Positions 10,454-31,566 of a DNA stretch of 35,608 nucleotides are shown one piece after another. The notes below the pieces were generated by a model. The model did not search any database and was not told the DNA's origin. It worked only from the letters and a program-made list of their open reading frames with translations. The stretch covers positions 1 through 35,608 of the forward strand of contig JBCCQQ010000063.1 of NCBI GenBank assembly GCA_039024555.1. Reading direction: 5' to 3'. Both the position numbers and the translations under genes were made by a program. The stretch comes from Cyanobacteria bacterium P01_D01_bin.156. Lineage in GTDB: Bacteria > Cyanobacteriota > Cyanobacteriia > Phormidesmidales > Phormidesmidaceae. Each line of letters starts with the position of its first letter. Positions within the stretch are counted from its first letter, which is position 1.

Positions 10454-12436
10454 TTACCCCTCAACTCTCTGAGCCACAAGGACCTGTTTAGTACCTGCAA
10501 TCTGCTCAGGTGTCGCTGTATCTACATCGGGTTTAGCCAACAGTGGCAAGCATAAGGTCACTGCTGTGCCTCGACCTACACCATCACTTTGGAGGCTGAT
10601 GCTACCCCCCATCAGCTTCATAAAATTCTTTGAAATGGCCAGGCCCAAACCAGTTCCTTCATAGCTGCGGGTATGGCTACCATCGACCATCACAAATGGA
10701 TGAAATAGCTTTTGTTGATCCTTAGGATCAATACCAATGCCGGTATCGCAGATCGTTACACTGACCCGAGGAGCAGGAATAGCGGCAGTACCATCATCAC
10801 CTTCCCCTGCTTGCACCACATCCATGGTGGCGGTAATACTCCCTTCATGGGTAAATTTGATGGCGTTGTAAACAATATTAAGCAGTACCTGTTTTAGCTT
10901 GTCAGCGTCTCCCTGTACCCAGGTATTTTGAAATTCTTCAGGACGATGCAGCGTAAGCCCCTTTTGCTGCACCTGCAATGCTTGCATATCGAGCACATCC
11001 CTTACAATCTCCCCCAGATCAACGGTTTCTAGATCCAGGTTGACGGTGCCCGACTCAATTTTGGCAATATCTAAGATGTCATTGATAATTTTCAACAAAT
11101 GGATAGCCGCGTTATCTGCCCGTTCCAAAAATTCCAGCTCTTCTGCCCGGTCATCGCAGGAACCATCGCGCACTAAACGGATACAGCCAATAATAGCGTT
11201 AAGCGGAGTGCGGAGTTCGTGGGAGGTATTAGCCAAGAATTCATTTTTAAGCTGATTAGCCATCTGGGCATTTTCCCACGCTTGACGCAGCTCTTGGGCC
11301 CCCCCCTCTAATCGCCTCAGCATTCGCTCTAGCACCTTACCCAGGTAATCCAACTCCCAAATATTTTGACTGGTGGGAGCAGCTTTGACCTCTGAAGATA
11401 AGTCTTGAACCTGCTGAGTATAGCGGATTAACCGTTCCACAGGTAACGATAGGCTACGAGCCACATAGAGTGCCAGCAGCGCATTTGCCCCCAACAGTCC
11501 CAAGGTCAGTAACAGTAAAATGGAACGAATTTCTCCCAGGGCGTGAAGCGCTTGATCGATGGGAGTGACGGCTAGCACATTCCAGGTTTGGGTCTGTTCC
11601 ATAGAGACCGATAGTCTGGCACCGCTATACCCAGCCAGCCATTCATCCCCCCCCTGCAAAAAACTAAACAGGTGTAACGTATCTGAATTGCCCACTCGAA
11701 TACTGCTGATGATGCTATCAAATCGATCGGCTCCTTGAAGATCGTCTATGGGCTGGCCAATTAATTCCGAATTTGGGTGAGTGACGACAATACCGTTGGG
11801 GTCAATAATCACCGTATTACCGACGAGGGATCTAGGATTGGTATCTTCTAGCTGGGTAAATCCCAACTGTGCTGATAAGGTATAACGCAGAGTCCCATCT
11901 GGCGTGTAGATGGGAGTAGCTACGGTGAGATCTAACAGCGAAGGACGCAGACCCGGCTCAGTGGCGGTTTCGGGTATTACTTCCCGTGGGCTATCTAAAG
12001 CGACCAAATAAAAATCTGGATTACCCACAGGGTCTTGATGCCATGGCAGCTGTAGCGGCGTGGGCAGTAGAGGAGTACTGCAGGTAGTCGAAATAACGGT
12101 GCCAGTTTCTGCTTCGGTTAGTTCTAAACAGCCTACGGTATGAGAGGCAATTCTTGTATAGCGACTCAGGGCTTCAGAAACAGCATTAGCATCACCTGCC
12201 TTCAACGCTTGACTATCGGCTAGCAAGAGCATTTCAGCCTCTACCGCTCTTACCCCCGTCTCTAGACCTATGGCTTTATTAATAGCGCTGCTCGTCAAAT
12301 TTTGCCGTGCTGTCTCTAACAAGCTGCTACGGGCCTTGCGTAGGGTAATCGCCTGGCCCATGAGTAACACTGGTGTACTCAGCAGCAAGATACGCAGTAT
12401 CAATAACCGGCGAAATGAAAGAGGACGCTTAGCCAT
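10454..12436 (-). CDS. Membrane sensor histidine kinase (Cache-like sensor, HAMP-like linker, HisKA, HATPase)
   Basis: Two TM segments. H box EFLANTSHELRTPL, N box KLKQVLLNIVYNAIKFT, G1 DTGIGI, F box LFHPF, G2 GTGLGLAI. Confidence 0.96.
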   Translation of the reverse strand: MAKRPLSFRRLLILRILLLSTPVLLMGQAITLRKARSSLLETARQNLTSSAINKAIGLETGVRAVEAEMLLLADSQALKAGDANAVSEALSRYTRIASHTVGCLELTEAETGTVISTTCSTPLLPTPLQLPWHQDPVGNPDFYLVALDSPREVIPETATEPGLRPSLLDLTVATPIYTPDGTLRYTLSAQLGFTQLEDTNPRSLVGNTVIIDPNGIVVTHPNSELIGQPIDDLQGADRFDSIISSIRVGNSDTLHLFSFLQGGDEWLAGYSGARLSVSMEQTQTWNVLAVTPIDQALHALGEIRSILLLLTLGLLGANALLALYVARSLSLPVERLIRYTQQVQDLSSEVKAAPTSQNIWELDYLGKVLERMLRRLEGGAQELRQAWENAQMANQLKNEFLANTSHELRTPLNAIIGCIRLVRDGSCDDRAEELEFLERADNAAIHLLKIINDILDIAKIESGTVNLDLETVDLGEIVRDVLDMQALQVQQKGLTLHRPEEFQNTWVQGDADKLKQVLLNIVYNAIKFTHEGSITATMDVVQAGEGDDGTAAIPAPRVSVTICDTGIGIDPKDQQKLFHPFVMVDGSHTRSYEGTGLGLAISKNFMKLMGGSISLQSDGVGRGTAVTLCLPLLAKPDVDTATPEQIAGTKQVLVAQRVEG

Positions 12437-24144: not shown

Positions 24145-25113
24145 CTAACCTTCGGCGGCTCCTACTTGCACCTTATCTAACCACAGCTCCAAATTGAGAT
24201 CGTAGTAACCTTCCTGACCCGATGGATAATCGCCCTCCTCAATAGCATTAATAATGTTGGGTAGGGCCGCGATATAGTCTTTACCACGTGCTACAGGATG
24301 TAGAGTCCATGCATTGGGGTTGGATAGTGTGGCACGCCAAGCATTGGTACGTTCGAGCTCGCGGGAAATCATGACTTCCCAAGAATCCATTTTGCCGCGG
24401 CCAGTCAAGTAATTTAGCCAGGTGAGTACCCGTGCTGGTAACTGTTTTAGCCACTCATTTTTATAGTCCATCCACAGCACAGGAATCGGTAAAAAAGCAT
24501 CAAAGTTCTGCTTTTTGAGCAAATAGGCGCGGCTACCAAAAAACTTAAATCGATAAAATCCGTCATCCCGTTCGTAAGGCACCCGCTGGTGTAGCGTACC
24601 GTCGGCCCGCGGCGGTCCCGATAGGGGACGAATGAATAACACATCTGGCCGTTTTTCCATCAGTTCGATCCCTTCGGTAATCCAACTATGGCCTTGTTTT
24701 TGGTACTGCAGCATATCGCTGTCAAAATGCACCACATAGTCACCGACGGTTTCTTCAAGGGAGAAGATGGTTCCTAAAATGGGGTAGCCCTTCCAATTGT
24801 GGGTAGGTTTGGGCACCGAACCAAAGTGTTTTTTATACACTCGCTGGCGATAAACATCGTCGTAGTTCATATCCACGAGACGATCTACCACACCCATATC
24901 CATCAACCGAGTACAGTTCTCTCGCAGTTGTTCCAGGGTGCCAATGCCAGGACGATTAACCTTATCTCCGGTTAAAGGCGCCGTATCTAGAAACAGGACC
25001 TTTTCCACAAAGGAATAATGGCTAGTACGTACCAAATGGGGAATTGTCTCCATCATGAAGGGAATATCGGTGCGGGCCACCATGATAGAGAGTGAACAAC
25101 GTGCAGGAGTCAT
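24145..25113 (-). CDS. GT-A fold (GT2-like) glycosyltransferase, uncharacterised
   Basis: GDYVVHFDSDML DxD motif; last gene of the glycan locus. ATG 25113 avoids overlap with the upstream gene. Confidence 0.7.
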   Translation of the reverse strand: MTPARCSLSIMVARTDIPFMMETIPHLVRTSHYSFVEKVLFLDTAPLTGDKVNRPGIGTLEQLRENCTRLMDMGVVDRLVDMNYDDVYRQRVYKKHFGSVPKPTHNWKGYPILGTIFSLEETVGDYVVHFDSDMLQYQKQGHSWITEGIELMEKRPDVLFIRPLSGPPRADGTLHQRVPYERDDGFYRFKFFGSRAYLLKKQNFDAFLPIPVLWMDYKNEWLKQLPARVLTWLNYLTGRGKMDSWEVMISRELERTNAWRATLSNPNAWTLHPVARGKDYIAALPNIINAIEEGDYPSGQEGYYDLNLELWLDKVQVGAAEG

Positions 25114-25219
25114 AGGGCTAGGGTGGGCATGACCCACTGGAGAATTAGCGAATGGGCAATGGGAAACGAGCGCATGGCATAGGTTGGGTTTTGGTAAGTT
25201 CACCCCAACCCTGTAATTA

Positions 25220-26146
25220 TCAATTTTTCTGTTGTGCCAACCGCCCAAGCATCGTTTTTAATCGATGTATCGGTTGAGATGCAACCTTCTCTGATGCATT
25301 GGCAGTAGGCTGAGCATCTGGGTCATCCAGATATCGATAATATTCCCAAACATCGCGATAAGGGCCCCCTGGACCCATGGGCGTACCGGCCCAGTGTAAG
25401 TAGCGCAACCGGGTCTCACCGTCATACAGAACGTGATCTCGGGCAATAAAATGTTTCATGCCCCCCCAGCTGCCGGGTTCTCTGGGGTTGACCTGGGTAA
25501 TGTTCAACGGGTTATCAATGCTGTTGAGCACCAAATAGTTCATGATGGGTTGATCTGTGGTACCCCCAGAAAAGTCAAAGTAATCACGATTTTGGGCACA
25601 TTCTTCTAATCGAGCACACATTTGTTCTAAGGTAATGGTGCCTTTTTTGGAACCCCAGAGACCGCTATTGAATAATGAGTTAACAATATCTGCAGGGAAA
25701 ATACCCCGTTCAATAACACTGGGGGAAAAAACATCTCGCAGTTTTCGCCCCTTAAAATGGTAGTCGCAACAAATAAAGTCAGCTTGGTCCAGATAAGACA
25801 ATATATTTGAAATGGGCTCAAAAAAGAGAATATCGGTATCCACATAAAGAAACTCATCTAGTGGCCCAAACCAAGCAGCGAGTTTACGCATTTTGTTGGG
25901 CAATGCTAGAAAATCTCGGGGAAAAATATCGCTAATTTTTTGTGTAAAGGTGTTTAGAAACGTCAGGTCAGGAAACAACTGCACCTGGTACAAGGCATTG
26001 AGCTTTTGGAATAGCCCTTGATAGTCATCGTTAAACGGAATCATGTACACGGGTACATGGGGATCGTGACGTCGAATGCTGGCTAAAAGTGCGATCGCAT
26101 TTTCCGCTACCTTACGATTGGCAACAATATAAACACCACGAACCAT
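25220..26146 (-). CDS. GT8-like sugar transferase (Npun_R2821/R2822-type family)
   Basis: RG.Y..AN, GPLDEFLYVDTD (DxD), FNSGL, DQPIMNY, LRYLHW. Confidence 0.8.
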   Translation of the reverse strand: MVRGVYIVANRKVAENAIALLASIRRHDPHVPVYMIPFNDDYQGLFQKLNALYQVQLFPDLTFLNTFTQKISDIFPRDFLALPNKMRKLAAWFGPLDEFLYVDTDILFFEPISNILSYLDQADFICCDYHFKGRKLRDVFSPSVIERGIFPADIVNSLFNSGLWGSKKGTITLEQMCARLEECAQNRDYFDFSGGTTDQPIMNYLVLNSIDNPLNITQVNPREPGSWGGMKHFIARDHVLYDGETRLRYLHWAGTPMGPGGPYRDVWEYYRYLDDPDAQPTANASEKVASQPIHRLKTMLGRLAQQKN

Positions 26147-26175: not shown

Positions 26176-27039
26176 CTAGACATGAACAGGGTGTGTAGCA
26201 GCACCATAGCCATAGGTAGGGTGCAAATTCTCTTGAATGAACGCATCCATATGCTTAATTGCTGCGGCAGATAGTTCCTGTTTGTATCCTCCTACGATGC
26301 CTTTTCGAGTCTTGAGTTGATGGGTCTGGGGTTGGTTCACCATCGTTTTTAGAACCCCTGCCCGGACCCTGTCAGACCCATTAATTTCGATTGAACGCAT
26401 ATTCTTAAATGAGCCAAATTCAATAGCTGATTGAATCACTTGAGGGGGGATAGTTACCCCCAGAAATGTTAGTACCTTTTCAAGTTCTCCATAGGTATTC
26501 GCTTTCATATCTTCGTAGCGAATTGTCATAAAGTCAGACGGTATATGGCGATGCTGATACCAGTTGTTATAGTCATTGACATAGACTGCCAGCTCGGGGC
26601 TATTTAGGATAAAGGCATTAATATCGGCATAGGTTTCATAGAGCTTTTTATGCTGGTGATATCTCGAGACTAGGGCATCCCGAGGGTCACGTACCAACAA
26701 AATCACCTTTTGCCGCTCGTAGGAGCCAAACTGGCCGTATTTCTCATGAATCGCTTTTATAGACGGTAGGTTCGGATTACGTTCAGAAAATGAAAAGAGA
26801 TAGTGTAAATTGACGTCTTCCACATTGTGGGCCAGCTGCATGGCTCGGCCTAGCATAATGCGCAGCCATGTGCGACCACAGTTAGTGGGTGAAATAAGCA
26901 GATAATCCGCTGTTTGGCGCTCACGAACATGCTTTTGTTTTTCAGTTTCATAGCTGCGTCGAACCTTACGCCGGACACGCTCCAACCATAGGTATGTCGG
27001 TTTATGAAACTGAAAAATAATTTTCTCAAGATGTTTCAT
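26176..27039 (-). CDS. PAPS-dependent sulfotransferase domain protein
   Basis: PSB-loop-like LISPTNCGRTWLR, 3'-PB LVRDPRDALVS, RYEDM, RKG.VGGYK. Start 27039 or 27063. Confidence 0.85.
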   Translation of the reverse strand: MKHLEKIIFQFHKPTYLWLERVRRKVRRSYETEKQKHVRERQTADYLLISPTNCGRTWLRIMLGRAMQLAHNVEDVNLHYLFSFSERNPNLPSIKAIHEKYGQFGSYERQKVILLVRDPRDALVSRYHQHKKLYETYADINAFILNSPELAVYVNDYNNWYQHRHIPSDFMTIRYEDMKANTYGELEKVLTFLGVTIPPQVIQSAIEFGSFKNMRSIEINGSDRVRAGVLKTMVNQPQTHQLKTRKGIVGGYKQELSAAAIKHMDAFIQENLHPTYGYGAATHPVHV

Positions 27040-27073
27040 ATCGTTGGCTTTAATACATAGCAAGGTAAAGGCG

Positions 27074-28087
27074 TTATCCTTTCAAGGCCGTTTTCACACG
27101 CGATCGCAACCGCTTTAGTAACTCTTTCACAAGGGGAGCTTTTGCCCCAATTGACTTGGGGTGTCCCTGGAATAACGGCCGCTGCTCAGGGAAATGCAGA
27201 TAGCGATAGTATAAAAACAAATCACGATAGGGAAAATCAAGGTTTTCACCACCGCAAAGGCGGGTAAACACCTTAGAGCTAATACCAATGTAGTGAAGAT
27301 AGGTTAACCGTTTTCCCCGATCCATCAGGTAATGTCCTTGTTGCTCAAAATGAGCTGAGGTGGCACAGCATCCCGTCCTCTTGTCTGGGGGTAAATGTTT
27401 CGCCAAGTTGAGAATATTTAATCCCAGCTTTAGCACCATATAATTCACAATGGCTTGGTCAGGACCGTTAATGTATAAAACATCTGCTTCGGTTTGAAGC
27501 TGAGTTAACAGCCACTCTAGCTGGTCATTGCTAAAGATGCCGCGCTTAGAAGCGTACATTCCCGCACAAAAGATTTTATCCAGCTGCTCATCAGAAAATA
27601 TTGTTTTCAGCTGGGGACTATGGACATTAAATACATGGGTCAGGTCCTTATATTGAAAGTCATAGACCACCCAATCGACTGCTTCTAAGGGAGCCAGTAA
27701 GGTTTCAATATTATTGAGAACCAGGGTGTCGGCATCTAAATATATATAGCGATCAAAAGGCCCATCAAAAGCACAAAAGCGACGATGCATACCCATCCGA
27801 TTAACACCGGATACCCCCCGTAAATTCCACACATCATAGGCCGTAGGATGCTGTTGCCAGATATTGGTGGCAAACTGTTCCCAACGGGTTAAGGCTACAT
27901 CATCGCTAAATAGGGTAACATTGTGGGGGCGATTTTGAATTTCTTCTGTCACTCTTTCAATTCTGTCGTCGTAGGGGATAACGCAGACTGGAAAATTAGG
28001 AGAGACGTTTGTTTCAATACTGTTGAGCAGAGCGACTAACTGGTCGTAAACAACATCGTTGGCCAGAGTATAGATGCCGCGTTTCAT
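27074..28087 (-). CDS. GT8-like sugar transferase (Npun_R2821/R2822-type family)
   Basis: RGIYTLAND, GPFDRYIYLDAD (DxD), FCAGMY, DQAIVNY, LTYLHYIG; clear paralogue of 25220..26146. Confidence 0.8.
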   Translation of the reverse strand: MKRGIYTLANDVVYDQLVALLNSIETNVSPNFPVCVIPYDDRIERVTEEIQNRPHNVTLFSDDVALTRWEQFATNIWQQHPTAYDVWNLRGVSGVNRMGMHRRFCAFDGPFDRYIYLDADTLVLNNIETLLAPLEAVDWVVYDFQYKDLTHVFNVHSPQLKTIFSDEQLDKIFCAGMYASKRGIFSNDQLEWLLTQLQTEADVLYINGPDQAIVNYMVLKLGLNILNLAKHLPPDKRTGCCATSAHFEQQGHYLMDRGKRLTYLHYIGISSKVFTRLCGGENLDFPYRDLFLYYRYLHFPEQRPLFQGHPKSIGAKAPLVKELLKRLRSRVKTALKG

Positions 28088-28162: not shown

Positions 28163-30235
28163 CTAAGATGTCGACTGGACGGGACTCGGTGATGGTGGAA
28201 TACTAACCGGCTTGGCAATAGATTCAAGATTTTCCACCACCTTGAGTAAATCAACAGCAATATTTTGGGCATGGGCCATCAGCTCTGCTTGCTCGTAAGG
28301 ATCATCAACATCTTCTTGAATAAGCGCCAGCAAACCAATCATGGAATTCAGCTGCGATCGCAGCTCATAGGACGACTGACCAATAGCCTTACGATAGGTG
28401 GGCAAAATTGTTGATGCCAGACTGCTATTACCACTTTCCCGCACGCTCTTGGATAACTGCATAGCGTGGAGTCGAGCATAGGCCCCTCGTTTTTCTAATA
28501 ATTCCATATGGGTACCCACCTCCACCACCTTGCCACGGTCGAGCACCGCAATTTGATCCGCATCGTAAATAGTCGATAACCGGTGGGCAATCACCAGGGT
28601 GGTACGACCTCGACTTAAATCATCAATGGCGTTTTGCACCAAACGCTCCGACACCGTATCCAAAGCACTGGTAGCCTCATCCAAAATCAGAATATCTGGA
28701 TCCTGTAGCAGGGCACGGGCAATGGCTAAACGCTGCCGTTGTCCCCCCGATAACAACACGCCCCTATCGCCAATCATTGTGTCAAATCCTTGGGGCAGAC
28801 GCTGAATAAACTCATAGGCATTGGCTTGTTTTGCTGCTTGAATCAACTCTTCTTCCGTGGCTTCTGGACGACCATAGAGCAGATTTATACGTACCGATGC
28901 ATTGAATAAAAAAGTCTCTTGGCTAACAATTCCCAAATTTGAACGATAACTATGAAGATCAATGGTTTTAAGATCTACTCCATCTAGCTCAATGGAGCCC
29001 TCCATGGGATCATAAAAGCGGGGCAGCAAATCTACTAACGTGGATTTACCGGCTCCAGATGCCCCCACTAAGGCGAGGGTCTCTCCTTTTGGCAAAAACA
29101 AATCAATTCCGCATAGTACCTCGTTGTCATGCCCAGGGTAACTAAATCGGATCTGTCTAAAGTGAATGCCCTTTTGTAAAGAACGGTAGAGATTTGCCCC
29201 GCGGGGCATAAAAGGTTTATCGTCCCGTCGCAGTAGAGCCGTCACAATTTCTACGCTAGCAGCCGTATTGGCTAACGTACTGCGATGACTGTTGAGCTGA
29301 CCGATATACGGCAGCATGCGAAACAAAATAATTAAGTAGGTAAGCAGCGATGCTGAAAATAGTTCTAGCTGATTGCTAAAGGCAACTCGTCCTAAAACCG
29401 CAATCACCATCAAGGCCAGAATATTAATGATTTCGTTGAAAGGGCCAATACCCGCAAAAATCAGCTGGGAATTAAATTGAGCACTTTCTCGCTCAACAAT
29501 CATTTGATCTAGCACTTGATATTCTTGATCCTCATTAGCGGTCGCTTTGACCAAGCGAATCCCAGAAAGGACCTCAAAAACTCGAGATGAATAGGCTTTA
29601 GAAATCTTTGAAAGTTCTTTTCCAAGATTTTTAGAACGCTTAACAACGATCTGATTGAGTAACGTAACTGACCCTAATGCGGTCAATGAAATAACTGTTA
29701 ACTGCCATGAGGTAAGAACTAGGAACACCACAAAGACTGCAATGGTGATCAGCACAATGACAATGCGTGTCAGATTACGAATGGCAATGGTGGTGCGGTT
29801 AACCTCCACATTGAGCTGATTGATCAAATCCCCAATTTTAGTCTGGGCAAAGTATCCCAGATCCACATCTAGCAGTAGTCGTAGACCCTGACGACGCAAC
29901 GACATTGCCAGTTTACGATTAAGGGTCCCCGCTGTTAAAGCACTGGCATAGCTCGACAGGCTTTTGAGAATAATCACCACTACCACTGCAGTCGCCATAA
30001 CGTGAAGACGCGCCCCCTCTGGCAGTCCATCAAAAAGACTCGTGAATTTCTGCAAAATAGGTGGCAGCGAGCTGCTGTAGTTCGCACCCTGCCCCAATAA
30101 CTCCAACAAAATCGGCAGAATTAATAGAGTACTCACACCGTTAAATAGCGCTCCTGAAAACCCCAGCAAAACCGTAAGCGATAAAAGAACCGGATATTTT
30201 AGTAGTGACTGAACGAGTAAACGGGTGGAAGACAT
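28163..30235 (-). CDS. ABC exporter (MsbA/HepA/PglK-like TMD+NBD) with C-terminal HisKA-like extension
   Basis: Multi-TM N-terminus; Walker A GASGAGKS, signature LSGGQRQR, Walker B ILILDE, IAHRL. Extra ~95 aa tail contains SYELRSQLNSMIG. Confidence 0.93.
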   Translation of the reverse strand: MSSTRLLVQSLLKYPVLLSLTVLLGFSGALFNGVSTLLILPILLELLGQGANYSSSLPPILQKFTSLFDGLPEGARLHVMATAVVVVIILKSLSSYASALTAGTLNRKLAMSLRRQGLRLLLDVDLGYFAQTKIGDLINQLNVEVNRTTIAIRNLTRIVIVLITIAVFVVFLVLTSWQLTVISLTALGSVTLLNQIVVKRSKNLGKELSKISKAYSSRVFEVLSGIRLVKATANEDQEYQVLDQMIVERESAQFNSQLIFAGIGPFNEIINILALMVIAVLGRVAFSNQLELFSASLLTYLIILFRMLPYIGQLNSHRSTLANTAASVEIVTALLRRDDKPFMPRGANLYRSLQKGIHFRQIRFSYPGHDNEVLCGIDLFLPKGETLALVGASGAGKSTLVDLLPRFYDPMEGSIELDGVDLKTIDLHSYRSNLGIVSQETFLFNASVRINLLYGRPEATEEELIQAAKQANAYEFIQRLPQGFDTMIGDRGVLLSGGQRQRLAIARALLQDPDILILDEATSALDTVSERLVQNAIDDLSRGRTTLVIAHRLSTIYDADQIAVLDRGKVVEVGTHMELLEKRGAYARLHAMQLSKSVRESGNSSLASTILPTYRKAIGQSSYELRSQLNSMIGLLALIQEDVDDPYEQAELMAHAQNIAVDLLKVVENLESIAKPVSIPPSPSPVQSTS

Positions 30236-30324: not shown

Positions 30325-31566
30325 TTAAAGATGTTCCCCTCTTTTACTGATGAATTTTCTAGGGCTAAGGGATTTGTTGAGTGACTGTTGTAAACACTGG
30401 TGAATCAGTGGCTCTAATCTTTTTGCCATAGCATCAACGCTATAGTGAGCTATGCACCGCTGCCTTGCCAGCTGCCCACGCTTTTCTGCTTGATCTAGAT
30501 CCCTAAAGATGGTTTGCAACATGTCAGCCAGTTGCTGTGGAGCATGGGGAGCTATCAGGTAGCCTGCATCCCCCAGAATTTTTGGGATATCACCTACCCG
30601 AGTAGACAAAACTGGCTTCGCCATAGCCATGCCATCCGTTAGTTTGATAGGAAACTGAGCCCGAGCAGTTGACGTATCCCGCTGGGGTACAACCACGACA
30701 TGCGCTGCAGCTACCACTTCGGCCATCTCCTCCAGGGGAAATCGGGGTAGCTTGATTAACCATTGAGGCCAACGAGCCATGAGCTCATCCTCATAGCCAT
30801 CAGGTTTACGACCACCAACAATAACTAAACGTAAGTCCGGTTGATTTAGCCGGTCCAAGGCTATCAATACATCCTCTAACCCCTTGTGAGGTCTAGCGGT
30901 CCCTGGAAACATCAGCACCCGATAATTCGATAGTCCATACTTTTGGCGACTGGCCACTGGGTCAAACCGAACTGGGTCAAAAATGCGAGTGTCTTTACTA
31001 TTGGGCAAATAATGACCACCAAATTTTTGCTGCAAAAACTGATTGTTAACGGTGACCATATCGGCTTTGGGGACCCAGTGCTCACCTAGCGAAATATAGT
31101 AATGGTGATCAATATCTCGTAAATCTCCGTCTGTTCTCAAAAAGTCTCGAATAAATTCCTTGGGGGATGGTCGGTAGTCGTAGCTATCACCACCGAACCA
31201 GCTCAGTTCCCAATCGTCGATATCCAGAAAAACAGGACAGCGAGCATATAGCTTTTTAAGGAGGGCTATGCCCAAGCTAGTGGGCCGAGGTTTAATGGCG
31301 TAGATTAAATCACCTTGTATGCGATTGAGTAGCTGAGTAGCAGTACTCACAAAACCAGGTAATTTTTTCCCAGGTACTGGAATTACCGGCAGGTTTTCGG
31401 GCGGAGGCGGATAAATTTCTTCTCCAAACTGACATCCCACAACTTCTACCCTGTAGCCCAACCGCTGCAAAATCTGACTAACCAGATAGACGCGGGTCAT
31501 ACCACCGCCAGAAACATCTGGAGCAATGACCGACACCTTGAGCGCTGAAGCCTTGGATGAGTTCAC
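30325..31566 (-). CDS. GT4 (GT-B fold) glycosyltransferase
   Basis: GGGMTR, FPGTARPHKGLE, FPIKL.DGMAMAKPVLSTRVGDIP; GTG start with GGAGG upstream. Confidence 0.92.
   Translation of the reverse strand: MNSSKASALKVSVIAPDVSGGGMTRVYLVSQILQRLGYRVEVVGCQFGEEIYPPPPENLPVIPVPGKKLPGFVSTATQLLNRIQGDLIYAIKPRPTSLGIALLKKLYARCPVFLDIDDWELSWFGGDSYDYRPSPKEFIRDFLRTDGDLRDIDHHYYISLGEHWVPKADMVTVNNQFLQQKFGGHYLPNSKDTRIFDPVRFDPVASRQKYGLSNYRVLMFPGTARPHKGLEDVLIALDRLNQPDLRLVIVGGRKPDGYEDELMARWPQWLIKLPRFPLEEMAEVVAAAHVVVVPQRDTSTARAQFPIKLTDGMAMAKPVLSTRVGDIPKILGDAGYLIAPHAPQQLADMLQTIFRDLDQAEKRGQLARQRCIAHYSVDAMAKRLEPLIHQCLQQSLNKSLSPRKFISKRGEHL

Follow-up and report, generated by a model that had tools for sequence, protein, structure and literature searches.

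Why should an ABC exporter encoded among glycosyltransferase genes end in a piece of a histidine kinase, and what would such a piece do there? The question is raised by a 690-aa ORF in the window, that is, the whole stretch of 35,608 bp that was analysed. A sequence-only reading had described the C-terminus as a pseudo-histidine-kinase DHp domain, with Tyr replacing the phosphoacceptor His, and had offered three functions for it: a dimer clamp, a docking site for a response regulator, or a phospho-Tyr site. Of these, receiver docking fits best with what is described below.

The exporter, its tail and its gene cluster

The ORF has the transmembrane and nucleotide-binding domains of a type IV ABC exporter, with intact Walker A (391), LSGGQ (495), Walker B (515) and H-loop (549) motifs (Table 1). 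It shares with HepA, MsbA and PglK the TMD-NBD half-transporter organization, the intact motifs and the surrounding glycosyltransferase genes; however, it scored below all three curated cut-offs (561 of 725 bits for the HepA equivalog NF045513, 429 of 602 for MsbA and 217 of 1000 for PglK). Leptothoe and Adonisia proteins were its closest named relatives. The protein continues for 142 residues after the H-loop, whereas nine paralogues of this genome in which the H-loop could be read end after 48–54 residues. The linker that follows the nucleotide-binding domain is variable, with entropies of 3.1–3.9 bits in the columns 16 to 8 residues before the Tyr (106 tails).

Table 1. Features of the exporter locus and of the Cache-domain kinase, in positions of the window
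Feature	Position	Strand	Basis
HepA-like type IV ABC half-exporter with C-terminal pseudo-DHp (P0001)	28163..30235	-	690 aa; best NCBIfam match HepA_fam_ABC, 560.8 bits, below the 725 cut-off
Transmembrane domain	29321..30058	-	residues 60-305; Pfam PF00664, E 2.3e-23
Nucleotide-binding domain	28457..29167	-	about residues 357-593; PF00005, E 2.6e-33; catalytic motifs intact
Variable Ser-rich linker	28397..28456	-	about residues 594-613; column entropy among 106 tails
Pseudo-DHp helical hairpin	28202..28396	-	about residues 614-678; CikB/HepN DHp class; kink Pro lost
Tyr623 codon (TAT) at the phospho-His position	28367..28369	-	codon read and translation
GT4 glycosyltransferase, conserved upstream partner of the exporter	30325..31566	-	PF00534/PF13692
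Npun_R2821/R2822-family protein, weak GT8-like match	27074..28087	-	NF045582, 419 bits, above the cut-off of 250; PF01501, E 0.012
Sulfotransferase	26176..27063	-	PF00685, E 9e-30
Second Npun_R2821/R2822-family protein	25220..26146	-	NF045582, 306 bits
ORF at cluster end	24145..25248	-	81-86% identical in 6/6 close-relative loci
Cache-domain membrane histidine kinase, DHp of the tail's class; network member, outside the operon	10454..12436	-	domain and DHp matches

The tail quoted in the sequence-only reading was present letter for letter in the ORF, and the codon at the phosphoacceptor position indeed encodes Tyr. The HisKA search proposed there gave a divided result: searched alone against Pfam HisKA (PF00512), this protein's own tail matched weakly at residues 622–675 (E 0.005–0.012; 16 bits, under the 26.9 cut-off), whereas 21 of 23 orthologous tails matched at E ≤ 1, the best at 3e-8. 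Alignment with the DHp of the window's own Cache-domain kinase showed 37% identity with one gap (pairwise E 7e-12), and the three best feature matches in the ESM Atlas were HisKA clusters (0.97). With a tail profile, kinase DHp chains ranked top among PDB sequences, the best being the 60-residue kinase chain 7n0e_A (E 7e-6), which we take to be a chain of the GacS-RetS complex. No HATPase_c was found by Pfam in the 690 aa, and the stop lies 15 residues past the end of the HisKA match. Thus, the profile matches and the reciprocal matches to kinase DHp in PDB and genomes place the tail among HisKA/DHp domains, while neither a phospho-acceptor His nor the catalytic domain of an active histidine kinase is present. 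Judged by sequence, the exporter ends in the DHp hairpin of a histidine kinase and has no kinase domain, as had been proposed.

The glycan setting assigned to the exporter was also supported, as a GT4 orthologue was found upstream on the same strand in 86 of the 96 loci with enough flank, with other glycan genes around. Downstream genes among the loci included GT4, GT10, epimerase and Npun_R2821-family genes. From the upstream GT4 and the GT4, GT10 and epimerase neighbours, we infer that the cargo is a glycan made by the flanking glycosyltransferases. In the window, the sulfotransferase gene is located between the two Npun_R2821-family genes; none was seen in the 6 mapped close-relative loci, and the upstream GT shares only about 50% identity with its counterparts there, which together suggest a recent cassette swap changing the glycan. 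The ORF at the cluster end had no Pfam or NCBIfam match. Elsewhere in the window, the ORF at 737–2389 carries a receiver domain fused to another protein, the match covering the receiver only; from its motifs, we assume the fusion partner to be thioredoxin-reductase-like.

Origin, variation and absence of the tail

In a quick tree built from a short alignment (60 columns, one mis-anchored row dropped), 37 tails formed one clade (SH-aLRT 93) within a group of CikB, HepN and Cache-kinase DHp domains (89). The CikB profile scored best for 120 of 125 tails. Searching this genome with the tail profile retrieved a GAF kinase first (E 2e-20), the Cache kinase second and, third, a short kinase whose catalytic domain is degenerate; its other kinases scored far lower. 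The GAF kinase is CikB-like, with 46% identity to S. elongatus CikB over 435 aa, and the short kinase falls with proteins that share a cluster with a named HepN. Both tree and profile assign the tail to this class, and on these comparisons it is derived from the DHp class of CikB, HepN and the Cache-HAMP kinase. It shares with CikB (S. elongatus) and HepN (Nostoc/Anabaena) the acidic inter-helix loop as well; however, both of these keep the His and the Pro, and CikB has GAF and HATPase domains, whereas the tail has neither. HepK was considered as donor and rejected, as P0243, presumably a HepK-like kinase from its size and His position, matched only weakly and in helix 1 only (E 4e-6), the best matches being CikB-like kinases.

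Other hairpins of the same DHp class were met during the searches. Four small stand-alone proteins (P0050, P0055, P0066 and P0095) consist of two tandem hairpins, most without the His, and are possible soluble decoys for a receiver of DivK/DevR type. The GAF protein P0101 also carries His-less hairpins. In G029, about 1.3 kb from the CikB-like DHp, lies a 466-codon frame that the tail profile matched strongly (G029:C1:1252232-1252408). Family f26 and related sequences contain another exporter paralogue, which has a long insert and a pseudo-DHp tail (G220:C9:340158-340325; P0105, P0107).

The expectation that the tail is kept in cyanobacterial orthologues held, with 126 distinct tailed sequences from 23 families, a count that gives no estimate of prevalence as the loci were chosen by their match to the tail. 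The tail is conserved about as well as the transmembrane domain (median identity to this protein of 43% and 46%, respectively, in 84 orthologues outside family f1). Among 106 tails, counted from the His position, Ser-1 (98%), Arg+3 (100%), Asn+7 (92%) and Gly+11 (96%) were conserved as strongly as the core leucines (entropy 0–0.5 bits), and Leu+15 was found in 90%. Glu+1 was present in 81%, position +4 was Thr (49%), Ser (27%, including this protein) or Asn (15%), and the kink Pro at +5 was lost in all tails. Position +12 was variable (Ser 40, Leu 19 and Phe 18%), whereas in CikB it is Phe in 90%; on sequence grounds this argues against the CikB interface having been retained in full.

The residue at the His position itself was Tyr in 97, His in 26, Phe in 2 and Arg in 1 of the 126 tails, with one row (G433) counted as His after correcting the script's anchoring by eye. 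When the His label was mapped onto a tree of 74 exporter cores, it changed 10 times, at least 7 of these gains or losses being forced by well-supported branches. The Tyr and His codons differ by one base, and the two residues are swapped even between the near-identical exporters G032 and G059. Given this distribution, phosphorylation at the Tyr623 site is unlikely to be required, and the phospho-Tyr site that had been suggested was rejected on the exchange of Tyr, His and Phe.

The hairpin is doubled in each of the 33 tails of family f7, the proteins of which group with Nostoc-type entries, and in all 5 of f26; the two families are not sisters on the exporter-core tree. AlphaFold2 folded the tandem tail (38 such tails) into one four-helix bundle (pLDDT 92, pTM 0.86). 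Fold searches with this model returned generic four-helix bundles as best matches and no DHp chain, a result that is uninformative for DHp as the PDB DHp chains are half-bundles.

On the other hand, the tail is not essential in every orthologue. A check of 37 genomes, 35 of which were picked for having no clear tail match and 2 as positive controls, revealed five syntenic orthologues that stop 46–67 residues past the H-loop with no tail, and a diverged exporter in G101 with the tail present. At a further locus (L168, G264) the tail is strongly degenerate and the upstream GT4 is missing within 2.6 kb; decay may be in progress there.

A stand-alone receiver as candidate partner

The closest known likeness of the tail is to DivL of Caulobacter crescentus. 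DivL, which signals to the kinase CckA, retains the kink Pro along with its PAS and catalytic domains, whereas the exporter shows no PAS-DHp-CA architecture, having a hairpin only, fused to an ABC transporter. Since the tail profile matched DivL only weakly (E 0.15), the tail, with its source in a cyanobacterial kinase class, arose independently of it. The two have in common the Tyr at the His site together with Arg+3, leaving no autokinase activity possible (PMC4211667, in the part drawn on), and, as proposed here, a single-domain DivK-type receiver as partner. According to the same text, R553 (+3), T557 (+7) and Y562 (+12) of DivL are needed for binding DivK~P, while Y550H has no effect. Counted from His243, T250, L254 and A255 of EnvZ are, by our numbering, positions +7, +11 and +12. 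These three residues set its partner specificity, as reported in the part of PMC2991266 drawn on.

This genome has 104 receiver matches. One of them is a 132-aa stand-alone receiver (G000:C10:21509-21925), named DivK or response regulator by annotation, which we tentatively equate with the published DevR, as it fits the features of that protein (about 135 aa, Asp53). In this genome, and at nearly all of 30 listed loci (L194:5507-8715, L197-L226), its divergently oriented neighbour is a gene for a DNA gyrase/topoisomerase A subunit.

Presence of this receiver and of the DHp class agreed in 78 of 80 genomes (65 with both, 13 with neither). The exceptions were G182, which has CikB by full-length search, and G248, in which no receiver was found even by profile. 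In a second, overlapping set, where the class was defined by a CikB orthologue (18 genomes) or by class kinases from the 80-genome search (3), agreement was 39 of 40; 30 of these genomes had been selected with the first result in view, and related genomes are not independent of one another, while the 10 added with no prior knowledge agreed with CikB in 10/10. Joint absence was also seen inside genera (g11, three with both and two with neither; g62, one with both and three with neither). Control regulators agreed with the class in 36 (OmpR-type), 27 (REC-phosphatase, two partial matches being counted as present), 25 (REC-coiled-coil) and 23 (NarL-type) of the 40.

With respect to the tail, the receiver was present in 39/39 tail-bearing genomes vs 27/41 others. 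Five genomes of genus g41 keep both tail and receiver with neither CikB nor the OmpR-type regulator. Tail-less exporters were found in G248, the sole CikB genome without the receiver, and in G182, which has the most altered receiver helix; three tail-less genomes (G294, G268 and G077) keep a normal receiver. A putative compensatory change in family f23 was treated as an anecdote, the helix-1 identity of G202 (0.67) being regarded as no lower than that of the rest of the protein (0.69).

RpaA was rejected as a dedicated partner, being present in 5/5 genomes without the DHp class, and the same applies to three regulators that we call NblR-like, NrrA-like and NarL-type. CikB has been proposed to regulate RpaA (PMC5400509, in the part drawn on), which counts against the receiver-docking reading.

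Covariation within this genome was also examined. Of 11 hybrid kinases parsed, 10 have Asn+7/Gly+11, and their own receivers carry Asn (7), Ser (2) or Ala (1), never Ile or Leu, at the fourth position of helix 1, defined as the fourth after the acidic pair; kinases with Thr or Ala at +7 pair with Ile/Leu receivers in 5/5. These counts omit one unparsed receiver, two Asn+7/Asn+11 kinase pairs (Val), and a receiver-GGDEF-EAL gene next to HepN. The DivK-like receiver has Asn at this position in 47/47 sequences, whereas RpaA and three other rival regulators have Ile. Because the Asn+7/Gly+11 face is common to many hybrid kinases, the covariation points to a receiver type rather than to one protein. 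The HepN-like kinase lies directly upstream of the receiver-GGDEF-EAL gene, whose receiver has the Asn signature (L078:358-3388); this protein is a candidate alternative partner of the tail and a possible link of the network to c-di-GMP.

Envelope polysaccharides have already been tied to an output-less receiver. HepK phosphorylates DevR, the function of which is described as unclear for lack of an output domain; hepN regulates hepA and hepB; and HepK together with HepN controls envelope polysaccharide genes (bioRxiv 10.64898/2026.04.08.717354, in the part drawn on). The HepK-like P0243 has the same face as the tail (Asn+7, Gly+11 and Leu+15), although it is not its donor.

Receiver docking and its alternatives

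We tentatively favor, at a little below even chances, a DivL-like docking tail through which a DivK/DevR-type receiver switches glycan export directly. The tails of two subunits would likely pair into a four-helix bundle under the ATPase domains, or each tandem tail would form its own; the bundle is a prediction, modelled for the natural tandem copy only. The phosphorylated receiver would likely dock on this bundle, and docking would change ATPase coupling and so switch export. The binding itself, a preference for the phosphorylated form as with DivL, and the direction of control are what we infer. Against this reading stand the five syntenic orthologues with no tail. As three of them keep the receiver, the tail cannot be the receiver's only target and export cannot always depend on the tail. 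The receiver's presence in 27 of the 41 tail-less genomes, and an OmpR-type regulator that tracks the class nearly as well, also weigh against it.

The direction may be the opposite: at the membrane, the tail would serve the phosphorylated receiver as a sink, anchor or phosphatase, and the CikB/HepN network would thereby be informed of the state of the exporter. All of the receiver co-occurrence applies equally to this alternative, and E-x-x-T/N, a phosphatase-type motif, is partly kept at Glu+1 and Thr or Asn +4. We consider it unlikely, as +4 is Ser in over a quarter of the tails, including this one, the kink Pro is gone throughout, and DivL with its Tyr has no phosphatase activity (PMC4211667, in the part drawn on).

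A somewhat less likely proposal is that the tail and the DHp of a kinase (CikB, HepN or the Cache kinase) assemble into mixed four-helix bundles, which would make the exporter a co-sensor or inhibitor of that kinase. The GacS DHp with RetS is a precedent, the hydrophobic core pattern is common to tail and kinases, the best PDB sequence match is a kinase chain, and both the Cache kinase and a HepN-like protein persist in g41. However, CikB is missing from the five tail-bearing genomes of that genus, and tandem tails are predicted to fill their own core within one chain, which would block mixing.

That the tail docks another receiver, such as the OmpR-type regulator (G000:C17:22643-23440), RpaA, or the receiver domain of a hybrid protein, is improbable in our view. 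The OmpR-type regulator occurs only in genomes with the DHp class (17/17), and 8 other regulators were profiled of about 100 receiver matches. Nevertheless, six genomes that have both the tail and the stand-alone receiver lack this regulator (G150, G154, G204, G300, G380 and G280), and it has Ile at the covarying position, while RpaA persists where the class is missing.

Equally improbable is a purely structural clamp on the two ATPase domains. This part of the sequence-only reading survives to the extent that the core leucines are conserved and that a homodimeric exporter would join two hairpins; as a pure clamp it is weakened by polar helix-1 residues conserved like the core, by the orthologues with no tail, and by the duplication in two families, which would undo a clamp between subunits. 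Phosphate relay through the site, by phospho-Tyr here and phospho-His in some lineages, is very improbable: although 125 of 126 tails have Tyr, His or Phe and the 26 with His retain the Glu or Arg beside it, repeated one-base Tyr/His swaps and two cases of Phe would not be tolerated at a genuine phospho-site.

Returning to receiver docking, the exporter-DHp fusion has apparently not been described in print: no ABC-HisKA fusion was found in the literature searched. In that literature nothing was found on Npun_R2821-R2825, only one table lists alr0582-0585, with no mention of alr0583, and no DevR target was named in the sources drawn on. The literature covered also included PMC12448279, PMC4365693, PMC3141674, PMC2211374 and PMC4046671. 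What is new here is the donor kinase class of the tail and a specific candidate partner.

With slightly greater reserve, we suggest that CikB, HepN, the Cache kinase and HepK converge on DevR, and that the exporter is its missing effector, a receiver-bound decoy switching the export of envelope glycan on or off. A candidate target of DevR is thereby named, and the partners are small, a 70-residue tail and a 132-residue receiver. If this is true, the output of a two-component system would be transport and not transcription, and the DivL principle would extend from kinases to transporters. CikB and HepN would gain a likely cognate receiver, and cyanobacteria of more than 20 families would have a post-translational switch for the export of surface glycans.
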